Shown: piece by piece, positions 2,148-7,920 of the stretch
Layout: the number at the start of each line of letters is the position of its first letter
How positions within the stretch are numbered: the stretch's first letter is position 1
Assembly (NCBI RefSeq): GCF_041886205.1
Contig: NZ_CP169029.1
DNA length: 64,000 bases
DNA from: Escherichia coli
Lineage (GTDB): Bacteria > Pseudomonadota > Gammaproteobacteria > Enterobacterales > Enterobacteriaceae
Strand: one strand, 5' to 3'
Notes under the pieces: model-generated
Databases searched by the model: none
The model's input: the letters and a program-made list of their open reading frames with translations, nothing else
What the model was told of the DNA's origin: nothing
Translations under genes and position numbers: made by a program

Positions 2148-3392
2148 CTATAGCTGTTTATTCCAGAGATGCTTGAAAATATCTAATGTTGAGACAACAT
2201 TGGCAGGCGACATTCGGTTTAATGAGGGTAGAAAGGGATGAGCCTCCAGGAAGTTGATAAAACGAGTCGCGCTTGCCAACGTCGAATTCCGCATTTCATT
2301 TGCTTTCTTGTTTCCTGTAAGGTTACAAACAGCCATTGAATAATCACGGGCGGAAAATGCACGCCAGACATTATTTCTCACGCCACCACTCAAAAATAAC
2401 CGCGGCGGCGTATCATAATGAGTCGTTTTCTCGCCGCGCTCTTTCACAAAGGAAATATGGCACCGGCCTTGATGAATATGCTGCAAATTAGCCATCAGAC
2501 AACCGCCTAATATAAAGCACTCGTTATCAAGGTAGTGTTGAATATTTATAGAATATCCTTCAGTCAGTACTCTAACCAGTTCAAAATGGCGATACGCCGG
2601 AAGAACCGGTTTCACCAGCATCCCCGGATCGTTTTGATGTAATATCGCCCGACCATAATCAATATCAAATAAGGTATCACGCCGCATAGTAAGTAACTCC
2701 TTGCGTTGTACGTGATGCGCCAGTGTACCTGGAGACAAACGCTCTTCATAACTTGATGCATACTGATAATGCGACTCTACCGCTGATGGAGAATAATTTG
2801 TTGAAATAGCGACAACTCTACCGCTTTGTTCTTCTGTGGTAACAAGACTATAAAGATAGTTATTACTACCGTTAAACTTTACGCGAAAAGCACGGGTAGC
2901 TAGAGAAATATCAGAAGCAGAAGAGTACTGGCGACTTTCTTTATAGTTTACTTCCCGGGCTAGTTTTATCAATTCACGGTTAAGCCCTGTGCTATTAAGA
3001 AGTAATAATTTACGGATATCAGCAAGTGAAGCACCTTGCTCAATCATCAATGCTAACTGTGTTCTTCGCGGCGTTGTATTTACATGATCCAGAGTGATAA
3101 ATGTTCTGGAACAATGATGACAATACATTCTCCTCTGCCCTTGAGCTGAATAACCATACTTTTTCAGAGATGTGCTTCCGCAAGCTGAACATTGTGGAAC
3201 CAACCCTCGCCATGAATGATTAACACGATTACGATAAATATTAAGAGATCGTTCAGATATCACAGGAAAAAAGTAACCGCATTCCCGACATAAAATATTT
3301 TTGCCTTGTGCAATATAATCCTGGCTATTCAACAATCCCAAGTTTTTGCATCCTGGTGTTTTGCAACAATCAACATTTACGTTGGTAAACAT
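2148..3392 (-). CDS. Cys-rich hypothetical protein with N-terminal zinc-ribbon motifs (C-x2-C...C-x2-C, InsA/IS1595-like) and a possible HTH; function unknown
   Basis: ORF track 2148..3428 (426 aa); internal ATG at 3392 (MFTNVNVDCCKTPGC...) has a GGGAG Shine-Dalgarno 5 nt upstream so is the preferred start; motifs CRECG and CSACG-x20-CHHCSRTF; AT-rich codon usage. Confidence 0.6.
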   Translation of the reverse strand: MFTNVNVDCCKTPGCKNLGLLNSQDYIAQGKNILCRECGYFFPVISERSLNIYRNRVNHSWRGLVPQCSACGSTSLKKYGYSAQGQRRMYCHHCSRTFITLDHVNTTPRRTQLALMIEQGASLADIRKLLLLNSTGLNRELIKLAREVNYKESRQYSSASDISLATRAFRVKFNGSNNYLYSLVTTEEQSGRVVAISTNYSPSAVESHYQYASSYEERLSPGTLAHHVQRKELLTMRRDTLFDIDYGRAILHQNDPGMLVKPVLPAYRHFELVRVLTEGYSINIQHYLDNECFILGGCLMANLQHIHQGRCHISFVKERGEKTTHYDTPPRLFLSGGVRNNVWRAFSARDYSMAVCNLTGNKKANEMRNSTLASATRFINFLEAHPFLPSLNRMSPANVVSTLDIFKHLWNKQL

Positions 3393-3429
3393 ATTCACTC
3401 CCTGCGAATATCCGGATATTATCGTCATA

Positions 3430-3473
3430 CGTCAAAGAAAAGAACCTGATTCAATGTGTAACATTGAATCAGG
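3430..3473 (-). terminator. Probable intrinsic terminator downstream of the sulfatase gene
   Basis: Perfect 12-bp inverted repeat cctgattcaatg/cattgaatcagg (3445-3473) with 5-nt loop, followed on the minus strand by TTCTTTTCTTT. Confidence 0.5.
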
Positions 3474-3521
3474 CGGGCATAGCCCTGAAAGGCATACATT
3501 ACATTTATTATGGTTATCAGA

Positions 3522-5015
3522 TTAGCCCCAGGTTACCGCTTCCGGTTTATCACCTCTGGCTTTCATTAATGAATCATTATCAATATCGGCTTTATATTTT
3601 AAGAACTTACCATACATTTGTTTTTCAATGTCTGGATTTTTACCTATCTGATTAATAGTCTCAAAACGATCGGTTTTGAGGTTATATAGGTACTTTGGCT
3701 TATTGTTACGATCGATGATCATTTTCCAGTCACCATCACGTATCGCCCATTCGTCGGTTGGATCATCCTGGAATGGCATGTCAATTCCGAAGATTAATGG
3801 CTTTTCACGTTTTAGCGCTTTGTTCTCAAGGACAGGAACCAACGATTCGCCATCAAAAGTGCGGTCCGTCGGTAATTTGAAGTTCATCATTTTCGCCAGC
3901 GTAGGCATCCAGTCCAGACCATAAACTGGCGTATCTGAAACCATTCCCTTTGGAAGATGTTTACCGTATTTAATAATTGCCGGAACACGGATGCCGCCTT
4001 CCCAAAGATTATCCTTGCGACCACGTAATCCATCAGTTTCACCTGCCAAATTCAGTTCATAAACTTTGCGTGCTTCACGCGTTACTGGGCCGTTGTCACT
4101 GGTAAAAATTATGATGGTGTTATCTTCTTCACCCATCGCTTTAATTTTATCCAGCACTTTTCCAACCTGAGCATCCAGATAACTGATGTTGGCATAATAT
4201 TCTCCTGTACCACGCCAGGGTTTATCCGCCCAGTCGCCATAAAATAAATCAGGATGCTGCTTCTGATATTCGCTCATATATTGTGAGTACATGTCGAGGT
4301 ATTTTTTGGGCGAAGCCAGGGGACTATGTACTTCGGTAAAAGCGACATAAAGGAAGAAAGGCTTACTGTCCTTTTTGTTATCCAACCAGTTAACAACTTC
4401 CGAACTGACATACTCACCACTCATTTTATCGGAACGTGGCGTTGGTTGCCCGTTACGCAACCAACCCGTTGGATAGACCATGCCAAAACGGGGACGCTCC
4501 TTCGCATTATCCAGAGTAGCGTCGGTAACAAAACCCGCCGTATTAACCAGTGAGTAATCAAAGCCCATATCTTTTGCCTGCGGCTGATCGGTGCGATCGC
4601 CGCCTGCATTCAGATGCAGCTTACCCATCATGGCCGTGTCGTACCCTTGCGCTTTGAGTAGATTAGCAATCGTGAGTTCATTACGCCCTAATGCCACATC
4701 TTTTCCCGTTGGGATCCATGAGCGTATGCCAGTACGAAATGGCATCCGCCCTGTTAATAGTCCCGCCCGTGAAGGAGAACTTAAGGGGGCAGGTGCATAG
4801 TAGTCGGTAAATTTGACGCCTTCCCGGGCAAGCCTGTCTATATTGGGCGTTTTAACGATCTGATGTCCATATGTTGCCAAATCACCATACCCTAAATCAT
4901 CCGCCATAATGATGACTAAATTGGGTTGTTTAGTCTCGGCGGCTACGGCTGGATTAAAAGCATTCCCTGTGCAAACTGCAAGGCCGATCAAACTGGCCAT
5001 TAATGTTTTCTGCAT
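3522..5015 (-). CDS. Secreted sulfatase (arylsulfatase family), Ser-type active-site motif
   Basis: ORF track 3522..5051; ATG at 5015 with AGGA 6 nt upstream gives MQKTLMASLIGLAVCTGNAFNPAVAAE signal peptide; N-terminal DDLGYGD metal-binding motif and SSPSRAGLLTGR formylglycine signature with Ser in the modified position. Confidence 0.85.
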   Translation of the reverse strand: MQKTLMASLIGLAVCTGNAFNPAVAAETKQPNLVIIMADDLGYGDLATYGHQIVKTPNIDRLAREGVKFTDYYAPAPLSSPSRAGLLTGRMPFRTGIRSWIPTGKDVALGRNELTIANLLKAQGYDTAMMGKLHLNAGGDRTDQPQAKDMGFDYSLVNTAGFVTDATLDNAKERPRFGMVYPTGWLRNGQPTPRSDKMSGEYVSSEVVNWLDNKKDSKPFFLYVAFTEVHSPLASPKKYLDMYSQYMSEYQKQHPDLFYGDWADKPWRGTGEYYANISYLDAQVGKVLDKIKAMGEEDNTIIIFTSDNGPVTREARKVYELNLAGETDGLRGRKDNLWEGGIRVPAIIKYGKHLPKGMVSDTPVYGLDWMPTLAKMMNFKLPTDRTFDGESLVPVLENKALKREKPLIFGIDMPFQDDPTDEWAIRDGDWKMIIDRNNKPKYLYNLKTDRFETINQIGKNPDIEKQMYGKFLKYKADIDNDSLMKARGDKPEAVTWG

Positions 5016-5034: not shown

Positions 5035-5796
5035 TTAGAAATCATAACCAAGCATATAAATCATTTGATCGCCAAAACCATCGTAGCCTAACTTATTATC
5101 GAAATAACGCCACGTCACACTGGCTTTCCAGCGAGGACAGAACTTCCAGGCAACTGTTAAACCGCCATTTAGCCCATTCCGACCAAATTGTTGTTCCGCA
5201 TAGGCATCATTTCTGTCCAGTTCTATTTCATTCCAGTTAGATAAAACAAATTTTTCGTCAAATAACGTAAAAGGTAATACTGCTGTCCAACCAACAACAT
5301 AACCATTCCAGCCATTTGTTTGACCATATTTGGCTGAGACATAGTCTCCAGATTGATTATGTAATCCTATATACGGTTTAAAAAATCCCCACGAACCATT
5401 CCAGCCGAGGTAGCCCAAGCCATAAAACATATCAAGATCGTCACCCCATGAGTTATCCCATTGACCATAGATCTTGCCAAAGAAAGTCATATCGGAGTCA
5501 AAAAGTCTGACATGTGTCATAGCAGAAACGGTATGATTACGCCCCGCTACGGCATGGTTAAGCACATTGCTTTCATAAAATGAGTAAAACTCGGCTTCTT
5601 TAAAATTCACACCAAAGTCCGCAGTCACTTTCCATACTTCACCACGGTGAGTGTTAACGAAGCCACTATTCCAGTCAGCATAACCTGCATTTATTGAGCC
5701 AAAGGAACCTTTATATTCTAATGAAGAATATGCAGGAAGATGATAGATAATCGTTGTCAGGGCACACGCAATAAGAAGCCGTCTTTTGGCAGACAT
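5035..5796 (-). CDS. Tsx/OmpK-family outer-membrane channel (nucleoside-channel-like beta-barrel)
   Basis: 253-aa ORF with signal peptide MSAKRRLLIACALTTIIYHLPAYS, aromatic-rich alternating beta-strand pattern, C-terminal ...MLGYDF resembling the Tsx C-terminus; GGAGA RBS upstream of ATG at 5796. Confidence 0.75.
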   Translation of the reverse strand: MSAKRRLLIACALTTIIYHLPAYSSLEYKGSFGSINAGYADWNSGFVNTHRGEVWKVTADFGVNFKEAEFYSFYESNVLNHAVAGRNHTVSAMTHVRLFDSDMTFFGKIYGQWDNSWGDDLDMFYGLGYLGWNGSWGFFKPYIGLHNQSGDYVSAKYGQTNGWNGYVVGWTAVLPFTLFDEKFVLSNWNEIELDRNDAYAEQQFGRNGLNGGLTVAWKFCPRWKASVTWRYFDNKLGYDGFGDQMIYMLGYDF

Positions 5797-6304: not shown

Positions 6305-6359
6305 AGAAAAGCCCCGAGTGATATTTTACTATCAACCCGAGGCCCCCTATATGCTGAAC
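6305..6359 (-). ncRNA. sokC: sokC antisense RNA of the hokC/mokC type I toxin-antitoxin locus (approximate)
   Basis: Placed by position: antisense to the mokC translation-initiation region as in hok/sok loci; not independently delimited from sequence. Confidence 0.4.
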
Positions 6360-6560
6360 ACATGTAGAGTGCCTCTTACTGACCGTAAGGTCAAGGAGAA
6401 GAGAGCAATGAAGCAGCATAAGGCGATGATTGTCGCCCTGATCGTCATCTGTATCACCGCCGTAGTGGCGGCGCTGGTAACGAGAAAAGACCTCTGTGAG
6501 GTTCACATCCGAACTGGCCAGACGGAGGTTGCTGTTTTCACGGCTTACGAATCCGAGTAA
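6351..6560 (+). CDS. mokC: MokC, overlapping regulatory reading frame of hokC
   Basis: MLNTCRVPLTDRKVKEKRAMKQHKAM... within ORF 6318..6560; shares its stop with hokC. Confidence 0.85.
   Translation: MLNTCRVPLTDRKVKEKRAMKQHKAMIVALIVICITAVVAALVTRKDLCEVHIRTGQTEVAVFTAYESE
6408..6560 (+). CDS. hokC: HokC (Gef) small membrane toxin, type I TA
   Basis: 50-aa MKQHKAMIVALIVICITAVVAALVTRKDLCEVHIRTGQTEVAVFTAYESE. Confidence 0.92.
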   Translation: MKQHKAMIVALIVICITAVVAALVTRKDLCEVHIRTGQTEVAVFTAYESE

Positions 6561-6583: not shown

Positions 6584-7920
6584 ATAAGCGCTAACTTAAG
6601 GGTTGTGGTATTACGCCTGATATGATTTAACGTGCCGATGAATTACTCTCACGATAACTGGTCAGCAATTCTGGCCCATATTGGTAAGCCCGAAGAACTG
6701 GATACTTCGGCACGTAATGCCGGGGCTCTAACCCGCCGCCGCGAAATTCGTGATGCTGCAACTCTGCTACGTCTGGGGCTGGCTTACGGCCCCGGGGGGA
6801 TGTCATTACGTGAAGTCACTGCATGGGCTCAGCTCCATGACGTTGCAACATTATCTGACGTGGCTCTCCTGAAGCGGCTGCGGAATGCCGCCGACTGGTT
6901 TGGCATACTTGCCGCACAAACACTTGCTGTACGCGCCGCAGTTACGGGTTGTACAAGCGGAAAGAGATTGCGTCTTGTCGATGGAACAGCAATCAGTGCG
7001 CCCGGGGGCGGCAGCGCTGAATGGCGACTACATATGGGATATGATCCTCATACCTGTCAGTTCACTGATTTTGAGCTAACCGACAGCAGAGACGCTGAAC
7101 GGCTGGACCGATTTGCGCAAACGGCAGACGAGATACGCATTGCTGACCGGGGATTCGGTTCGCGTCCCGAATGTATCCGCTCACTTGCTTTTGGAGAAGC
7201 TGATTATATCGTCCGGGTTCACTGGCGAGGATTGCGCTGGTTAACTGCAGAAGGAATGCGCTTTGACATGATGGGTTTTCTGCGCGGGCTGGATTGCGGT
7301 AAGAACGGTGAAACCACTGTAATGATAGGCAATTCAGGTAATAAAAAAGCCGGAGCTCCCTTTCCGGCACGTCTCATTGCCGTATCACTTCCTCCCGAAA
7401 AAGCATTAATCAGTAAAACCCGACTGCTCAGCGAGAATCGTCGAAAAGGACGAGTAGTTCAGGCGGAAACGCTGGAAGCAGCGGGCCATGTGCTATTGCT
7501 AACATCATTACCGGAAGATGAATATTCAGCAGAGCAAGTGGCTGATTGTTACCGTCTGCGATGGCAAATTGAACTGGCTTTTAAGCGGCTCAAAAGTTTG
7601 CTGCACCTGGATGCTTTGCGTGCAAAGGAACCTGAACTCGCGAAAGCGTGGATATTTGCTAATCTACTCGCCGCATTTTTAATTGACGACATAATCCAGC
7701 CATCGCTGGATTTCCCCCCCAGAAGTGCCGGATCCGAAAAGAAGAACTAACTCGTTGTGGAGAATAACAAAAATGGTCATCTGGAGCTTACAGGTGGCCA
7801 TTCGTGGGACAGTATCCCTGACAGCCTACAAAACGCAATTGAAGAACGCGAGGCATCGTCTTAACGAGGCACCGAGGCGTCGCATTCTTCAGATGGTTCA
7901 ACCCTTAAGTTAGCGCTTAT
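6584..7920 (+). mobile_element. IS186 insertion sequence (IS4 family)
   Basis: Terminal inverted repeats ataagcgctaacttaagggttg (left) / caacccttaagttagcgcttat (right); about 1337 bp; encodes InsL; ends uncertain by 1-2 bp. Confidence 0.9.
6638..7750 (+). CDS. insL: IS186 transposase InsL
   Basis: ORF 6632..7750; MNYSHDNWSAILAHIGKPEELDTSARNAGALTRRREIRDAATLLRLG... about 370 aa. Confidence 0.93.
   Translation: MNYSHDNWSAILAHIGKPEELDTSARNAGALTRRREIRDAATLLRLGLAYGPGGMSLREVTAWAQLHDVATLSDVALLKRLRNAADWFGILAAQTLAVRAAVTGCTSGKRLRLVDGTAISAPGGGSAEWRLHMGYDPHTCQFTDFELTDSRDAERLDRFAQTADEIRIADRGFGSRPECIRSLAFGEADYIVRVHWRGLRWLTAEGMRFDMMGFLRGLDCGKNGETTVMIGNSGNKKAGAPFPARLIAVSLPPEKALISKTRLLSENRRKGRVVQAETLEAAGHVLLLTSLPEDEYSAEQVADCYRLRWQIELAFKRLKSLLHLDALRAKEPELAKAWIFANLLAAFLIDDIIQPSLDFPPRSAGSEKKN

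Follow-up and report, generated by a model that had tools for sequence, protein, structure and literature searches.

A covarying hairpin behind an enterobacterial sulfatase gene is probably a leaky intrinsic terminator inside its operon

Partial terminators inside operons can set the stoichiometry of the encoded products; examples are the rplL-rpoB attenuator and the terminators after papA and fimA. Leader-peptide attenuators are represented by pyrBI and trp, and small RNAs (sRNAs) derived from 3'UTRs by CpxQ, SroC and DapZ. In Klebsiella, the atsBA operon combines a sulfatase gene with that of its maturase, the latter coming first, and to our knowledge no terminator has been described inside it. 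Here, we report on a palindrome that follows a sulfatase gene of Escherichia coli. A literature search covering the Salmonella locus tags, sulfatase/nhaA islands and maturase operons returned nothing on this hairpin element. When scanning the window and the S. arizonae locus against Rfam 15 with a permissive E-value, we obtained chance-level matches only; the best of them reach 16.4 and 15.5 bits where the families have gathering scores of 80 and 45, with E-values no lower than 2.

The window, i.e., the whole 64-kb stretch of E. coli DNA that was analysed, carries the palindrome in the gap (3393-3521) between the genes of a periplasmic sulfatase and of a Cys-rich protein. All features are summarized in Table 1. 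For the Cys-rich gene we use the ATG at 3392-3390, which is preceded by GGGAG and was assigned by PGAP in an identical strain (MFTNVNV...); the start at 3428 used in the preliminary description is probably too far upstream. Beyond the channel gene, the plus strand shows hokC/mokC and an IS186-like ORF. This IS186-like transposase ORF (6318-6560 (+), 6632-7750 (+)) lies beside hokC/mokC in the window strain, and in the otherwise identical strain 6EVA dnaJ directly follows mokC with no IS between them.

Table 1. Features of the sulfatase locus in the window, ordered along the minus strand.
Feature	Coordinates	Strand	Remarks
Tsx/OmpK-like outer-membrane channel gene	5035..5796	(-)	Pfam Channel_Tsx, E 5.8e-14; annotated OmpK; the E. 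coli island starts with this gene
Periplasmic sulfatase gene	3522..5015	(-)	Stop codon 3524-3522; Pfam Sulfatase, E 1.5e-58; PGAP coordinates
A/U-rich spacer past the sulfatase stop	3497..3521	(-)	Sequence drifts in alignments
Near-invariant motif TATGCCTTTCAGGGCTATGCCCGCC	3472..3496	(-)	Directly 5' of the hairpin; conserved in 15/17 loci picked independently of the motif
Possible mini-ORF, 8 codons, MPFRAMPA*	ATG 3495-3493 to TGA 3471-3469	(-)	Stop within the 5' arm of the hairpin
Small 4-bp hairpin GGGC-UAU-GCCC	3475..3485	(-)	Abuts the main hairpin; RNAfold, RNAalifold
Main terminator hairpin	3444..3474	(-)	G.U + 12 perfect pairs + U-A, UAC loop; core palindrome 3445-3473; covariation, strand asymmetry
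U-tract UUCUUUUCUUU	3434..3444	(-)	Directly 3' of the hairpin; four invariant T columns, rest T-rich, in 24 versions
Variable spacer	3411..3433	(-)	Differs between E. coli alleles; loose similarity to maturase 3' ends
Ribosome-binding block TATTCGCAGGGAGTGAATATG	3390..3410	(-)	Strongly conserved; includes the start codon of the Cys-rich gene
Cys-rich gene, 414-aa protein	2148..3392	(-)	IS1/IS1595-type zinc-ribbon; NCBIfam NF050000, E 3.4e-7
nhaA	730-1896	(-)	

The palindrome consists of cctgattcaatg (3445-3456), the spacer tgtaa (3457-3461) and cattgaatcagg (3462-3473). It had been described as a perfect inverted repeat with 12-bp arms, and this is borne out, with both shuffles and folding energy placing it above chance. 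The outer bases of the 5-nt spacer pair as well, which yields 13 bp with a loop of 3 nt, and an additional G.U pair (G3474/U3444) extends the stem to 14 pairs in total. The hairpin starts 48 nt past the sulfatase stop codon (UAA) on the same strand. That is, a stable stem with a short loop, in the range of about 5-14 bp accepted for terminators, is located on the transcribed strand and 3' of a stop codon along the direction of transcription. Its folding energy, which the preliminary description had proposed as a check, turned out to be strong, i.e., -16.8 kcal/mol (z -6.2) for the 29-mer alone, with values for the hairpin ranging from -16.8 to -18.9, and -25.7 kcal/mol (z -6.7) for the 61-mer. 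None of 200 shuffles folded as well as the palindrome. The G+C content of the stem is only moderate (5/14 pairs are G-C according to the consensus scan). The search for the same palindrome elsewhere, also proposed beforehand, found a single occurrence in the 64-kb window with up to 3 mismatches allowed, and 100 shuffles yielded no copy.

Directly 3' of the stem, the minus strand continues with TTCTTTTCTTT (3444-3434), i.e., with a U-rich tract that is broken by C. The plus-strand sequence following the palindrome, CGGGCATAGCCC, has no T-tract, such that the U-tract is present on the transcribed strand only. The consensus scan calls a minus-strand terminator with 14 pairs and the tail TCTTTTCTTT. 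When all hairpin and T-tract candidates on both strands of the window are ranked by energy, the palindrome comes 3rd among 227. A score that combines hairpin and T-tract, with a formula after d'Aubenton-Carafa and Lesnik, amounts to about 16 for the palindrome and about 18 for the terminator after nhaA, i.e., it is comparable to obvious gene-end terminators within the window.

The island of channel, sulfatase and Cys-rich gene is found between nhaA and hokC in about a quarter of the complete E. coli genomes (1,271-1,275 of 5,426). The window-type allele accounts for about 220 genomes, including O121 and SMS-3-5, and the B2/UPEC-type allele, which is 86-89% identical to it, for about 1,050, including Nissle 1917, 536 and ST131. 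The hairpin is present in each of the 1,275 complete E. coli genomes that bear the island and only in these, the median being one copy. For the comparison across species, we fetched 20 loci from about 15 species with the Cys-rich protein as handle and took 13 further loci from a metagenome scan, where they were chosen by an exact match to the motif listed in Table 1. This resulted in 24 distinct versions.

The same element is seen behind the sulfatase gene in Escherichia, Salmonella, Citrobacter, Klebsiella, Kluyvera, Phytobacter, Kosakonia and others. Both the homologous hairpin and its U-tract follow the sulfatase gene in Salmonella, Citrobacter, Kosakonia, Phytobacter and another enterobacterium that bear a gene for a maturase, as well as in all lineages in which this gene is missing, namely Escherichia (coli, albertii, whittamii and a MOD1 isolate), Phytobacter massiliensis, Klebsiella spallanzanii, K. 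oxytoca and Kluyvera intermedia. At the same position, Franconibacter and Enterobacter pulveris show a non-homologous hairpin with a U-tract, and C. amalonaticus a hairpin without U-tract. The element is not universal, since Buttiauxella has a gap of 13 nt and no hairpin.

All 24 versions fold into a hairpin (-13 to -25 kcal/mol) that is followed by the U-tract. The stem sequences vary (e.g., CCUGAUUCAAUG, CCUGAUCCGG, CCUGGCUCAG, CCCGAUCUCUC) and the pairing is retained. For the 17 genome-derived sequences, 96.5% of the cells are paired compared to 25-43% after sliding the partner by 1-3 columns. Of the stem pairs, 8/13 are changed on both sides. With all 24 sequences, the respective values are 95.8% and 27-42%, with double changes in 9/14 pairs, and the covariation score was matched by 0/500 shuffles. 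RNAalifold predicts the same helix without guidance. The two E. coli alleles already show such changes: relative to the window, the loop-closing U-A is swapped to C-G in the B2 allele and an A-U pair has become G.U, and the B2 palindrome is imperfect as DNA. Over the outer 11 pairs, we counted 235 Watson-Crick, 24 G.U and 4 A.C pairs and 1 other, and the summed hairpin energy is -448 kcal/mol for the sense strand compared to -368 for the antisense strand. Since the G.U pairs form in the sense RNA only, selection preserves the hairpin in the operon's own transcript, i.e., it acts on sense-RNA pairing rather than on the sequence itself.

The gene order of the other species puts the hairpin into a different context than the window does. 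Commonly, the order is channel, sulfatase, radical-SAM maturase, Cys-rich gene and nhaA, with the hairpin between sulfatase and maturase; in Salmonella the maturase is identified by Pfam Radical_SAM and SPASM matches. In every maturase-bearing locus that shares the hairpin (8+ genera), the U-tract is followed by the start of the maturase gene after 13-15 nt. The maturase stop codon and the Cys-rich gene are about 25 nt apart, with no hairpin between them. Given that only 13-15 nt are available for a promoter, transcripts of the maturase and Cys-rich genes presumably pass through the hairpin. For Escherichia, a loose alignment places the deletion of the maturase ORF between the U-tract and the final few nucleotides of that ORF; the deletion brought the hairpin next to the Cys-rich gene, and the variable spacer is probably what is left of the gene's 3' end. 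The spacers of the maturase-less lineages differ in length, which suggests that the maturase was lost several times independently.

Further observations concern the surroundings of the hairpin. The ribosome-binding block in front of the Cys-rich gene is nearly identical over its 21 nt from E. coli to Klebsiella and Citrobacter, which is far beyond what ribosome binding needs. The Tsx-like channel gene is inverted and thus divergent from the sulfatase gene in Salmonella, some Citrobacter and K. spallanzanii, such that the sulfatase gene is the first of the operon there. In Salmonella, arylsulfotransferase genes flank the locus on both sides.

We consider it likely that the palindrome is an intrinsic terminator at the 3' end of the sulfatase gene but inside the operon, and that it is leaky. 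The preliminary description had read it as a terminator that ends the channel-sulfatase transcript and thus makes the Cys-rich gene a separate unit. Of this, the terminator is well supported by the strong hairpin, the strand-specific U-tract, the compensatory changes and the G.U pairs, and the separate unit is not supported, given the gene order of the maturase-bearing loci. An attenuator had been named there as another option, and it is in its passive, i.e., leaky, form that we favour it. RNA polymerase would transcribe the 13-14-bp stem followed by the U-tract, the hairpin would form in the exit channel, and a fraction of the transcripts would be released at about 3434-3440. In the usual operon, the ribosome-binding site of the maturase gene is located directly past the U-tract, which makes a partial terminator most likely. 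The sulfatase would be strongly expressed in this way, and the maturase and the Cys-rich protein would be produced at lower levels via read-through. In Escherichia, where the maturase gene was deleted, the same element sits 42 nt upstream of the start of the Cys-rich gene.

Among the alternatives, an efficient terminator at the end of the operon, with the Cys-rich gene as a separate unit under its own promoter, survives best, even though we regard it as unlikely. In its favour, hairpin and U-tract match the gene-end terminators of the window in strength, and the window allele contains a promoter-like match, TTGACG-17-GATATT, between the hairpin and the Cys-rich gene, which agrees with the consensus in 9/12 positions and could make the gene independent in the window strain. 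However, matches of this quality are at chance level (12 found vs 12.0 expected), the start site of this one would fall within the Shine-Dalgarno sequence, and the B2-type allele with its about 1,050 genomes does not have it. In the E. coli alleles, no conserved promoter was found between the hairpin and the start of the Cys-rich gene. The short distance of U-tract and start codon in the maturase-bearing species also speaks against a separate unit.

A passive terminator alone leaves one observation unaccounted for, i.e., the near-invariance of the 24 nt located 5' of the hairpin. Their consensus is UAUGCCACUUAGGGC-NNU-GCCC(G/A)CC. The A/U-rich spacer before the motif drifts, and the stem after it covaries. 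Within the motif, the GGGC/GCCC stem of the small hairpin is invariant and its loop (NNU) variable, such that covariation speaks neither for nor against this hairpin. The 13 metagenome sequences carry no evidence for the conservation of the motif, given their selection by exact match. Degenerate forms of the motif are restricted to maturase-less lineages, namely K. oxytoca, P. massiliensis and, mildly, Escherichia, which hints, at small numbers, at a link between the motif and maturase expression. When compared by eye with the consensus sequences, the motif does not fit a sigma-70, sigma-54 or sigma-E promoter. The motif may belong to an attenuator based on a mini-ORF, may be bound by a protein or an RNA, or may be the seed of a 3'UTR-derived sRNA. 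It is rather unlikely, though conceivable, that the hairpin is no passive terminator but the output of a small cis-regulatory device conserved in Enterobacteriaceae. The motif would then control read-through into the maturase gene, either as a mini-ORF of 8 codons that is coupled to translation of the sulfatase and stops within the terminator arm, or by binding a protein or RNA; a seed of an sRNA from the 3'UTR would be the alternative.

A regulated attenuator is in our view doubtful in its specific form, where a ribosome on the mini-ORF, possibly one that has re-initiated after translating the sulfatase ORF, would cover the hairpin's 5' arm and thereby allow read-through into the maturase gene. 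The mini-ORF has the consensus ATG CCN YTN MGG GCN NTG CCC RCC TGA, i.e., MP[L/F]RA[M/L/V]P[A/T]-stop. Its start codon is always present (TTG in Kosakonia), sequence conservation begins at this ATG, and the UGA is located inside the 5' arm in 14/24 versions. Furthermore, none of the second codon positions varies, and the changes seen at other sites are synonymous or conservative (e.g., AGG/CGG). The degeneration of the motif only where the maturase was lost would also fit. On the other hand, the pN/pS ratio is 0.39 in the frame of the mini-ORF and 0.27 in the +1 frame, i.e., the frames are not discriminated, and the coding-like appearance is therefore no evidence. The variable sites coincide with unpaired positions of the RNA, and the 13 metagenome loci were picked by the motif. 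No Shine-Dalgarno sequence was found ahead of the mini-ORF, and in P. massiliensis a 1-nt deletion breaks its frame and keeps GGGC..TGCCC. The stop codon is lost in the other 10 of the 24 versions because it sits in covarying stem positions, and the ORF then extends to 12-44 codons without a consistent frame. Thus, with ORF lengths between 8 and 44 codons, a fixed ribosome position is missing, and so is an antiterminator helix: RNAfold and RNAalifold predict no pairing between the 5' arm of the hairpin and the sequence upstream, and no conserved complement was seen in the alignments by eye. RNAalifold does predict pairing of the sequence around the start codon with the final codons of the sulfatase ORF, but this long-range helix, which involves GCCAC of the motif, shows no compensatory changes and is unsupported. 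A mini-ORF ending in '...LPA-stop' in Franconibacter was judged by eye to be a coincidence, since its geometry is different and it is absent from E. pulveris.

More doubtful still is a small regulatory RNA from the sulfatase 3'UTR, for which the motif would provide the seed and the hairpin the terminator. The conserved single-stranded stretch directly 5' of the terminator and the A-rich tract (AAU/AAG) upstream of it are in accordance with this idea. Evidence against it comes from the missing Rfam match, from the motif varying at three positions within Escherichia and from the interrupted U-tail, which is less typical of Hfq-binding sRNAs.

It is improbable that the hairpin acts without termination, i.e., as a 3' element or processing site that stabilises the sulfatase message by shielding it from exonucleases. 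Its long A/U-rich stem as well as the U-tract-free hairpin of C. amalonaticus at this position would be compatible with such a role, but a pure stabiliser would need no U-tract, and one is present in all 24 homologous versions and behind the hairpins of Franconibacter and E. pulveris.

An operator for a dimeric regulator, which the preliminary description had considered, is disfavoured to such an extent by covariation and strand-specific wobbles that it can be ruled out for practical purposes. The palindrome is perfect in the window strain and the product of the neighbouring gene, a Cys-rich zinc-ribbon protein and as such a candidate regulator, probably binds DNA. However, half-sites are not conserved as DNA, i.e., the arms change freely between genera with the pairing kept and the 24 G.U pairs are mismatches in DNA, and the site is located 3' of a gene instead of at a promoter, with no second copy in the window. 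Least credible is a dispersed repeat (REP/BIME, MITE or IS end), which the palindromic sequence and the transposase-related neighbour might suggest, since such an element requires many copies per genome, whereas the palindrome occurs once in the window, has a median of one copy per genome and keeps its syntenic position from genus to genus.

The Cys-rich protein, which according to our reading would be expressed via read-through, belongs to a family that a homologue search finds restricted to Enterobacteriaceae, and its gene adjoins nhaA in many genera. The AF2 model is of medium confidence (pLDDT 68.6), and its Foldseek matches in the PDB are weak (best E 4e-3) and all RNase H-like transposase/integrase folds. 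The gene is single-copy, and the C-terminal half of the protein contains invariant Cys and His residues. These data suggest a transposase-derived and probably DNA-binding protein at a fixed site next to nhaA, which looks like a domesticated transposase. We speculate that low expression via read-through would suit such a protein.

The sulfatase itself shows the formylglycine motif S-S-P-S-R in every Escherichia locus and C-S-P-S-R in every other locus; the four other maturase-less lineages keep the Cys. Ser-type sulfatases require a maturase of the AtsB type. The Escherichia enzyme would therefore either depend on another maturase (AslB or YdeM) or have changed its function.

Taken alone, the palindrome looks like routine operon punctuation, i.e., like an ordinary intrinsic terminator of a well-known kind. 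Its context corrects the picture of the operon, since the transposase-derived Cys-rich gene is probably transcribed through the hairpin and not independently, and it suggests how sulfatase operons hold the maturase and an accessory protein low relative to the enzyme. In addition, a short non-coding motif that at least ten genera share and that has no counterpart in Rfam is flagged as a candidate for a regulatory function. Given the presence of the island in B2/UPEC strains, Nissle 1917 and Salmonella, any such regulation would reach gut and urinary-tract strains.

Compared to the described systems, the locus shares with the 3'UTR-derived sRNAs CpxQ, SroC and DapZ a conserved stretch immediately 5' of the mRNA's own terminator, but differs from them in having no match to an Rfam family. 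A parallel to pyrBI and trp would be the possible mini-ORF, which reaches into the terminator's 5' arm such that a ribosome could block the hairpin. In contrast to these attenuators, there are neither a Shine-Dalgarno sequence nor diagnostic regulatory codons, the fold predictions and alignments show no antiterminator helix, the stop codon changes its position between versions, and the site is intergenic instead of in a 5' leader. With Klebsiella atsBA, the locus probably has in common that a sulfatase gene is co-transcribed with that of its radical-SAM maturase, the order of the two genes being reversed in atsBA.

The canonical Rho-independent terminators of E. coli are closer. Like them, the palindrome combines a stem-loop with an immediate U-rich tract a few tens of nt past a stop codon, and both its energy and its U-tract score are within the range of the other terminators of the window. 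It differs by a longer (13-14 bp) and A/U-richer stem, by the U-tract being interrupted by C, and by the start of the next gene within 13-15 nt in most species. This last property leads back to the partial terminators of rplL-rpoB, papA and fimA. For the palindrome, read-through is what we infer from the gene order, and no regulator of it is known. What it probably shares with these systems is an intrinsic terminator between co-oriented genes that leaves apparently no room for a promoter, with an abundant product encoded upstream and a catalytic or regulatory product of low amount downstream.
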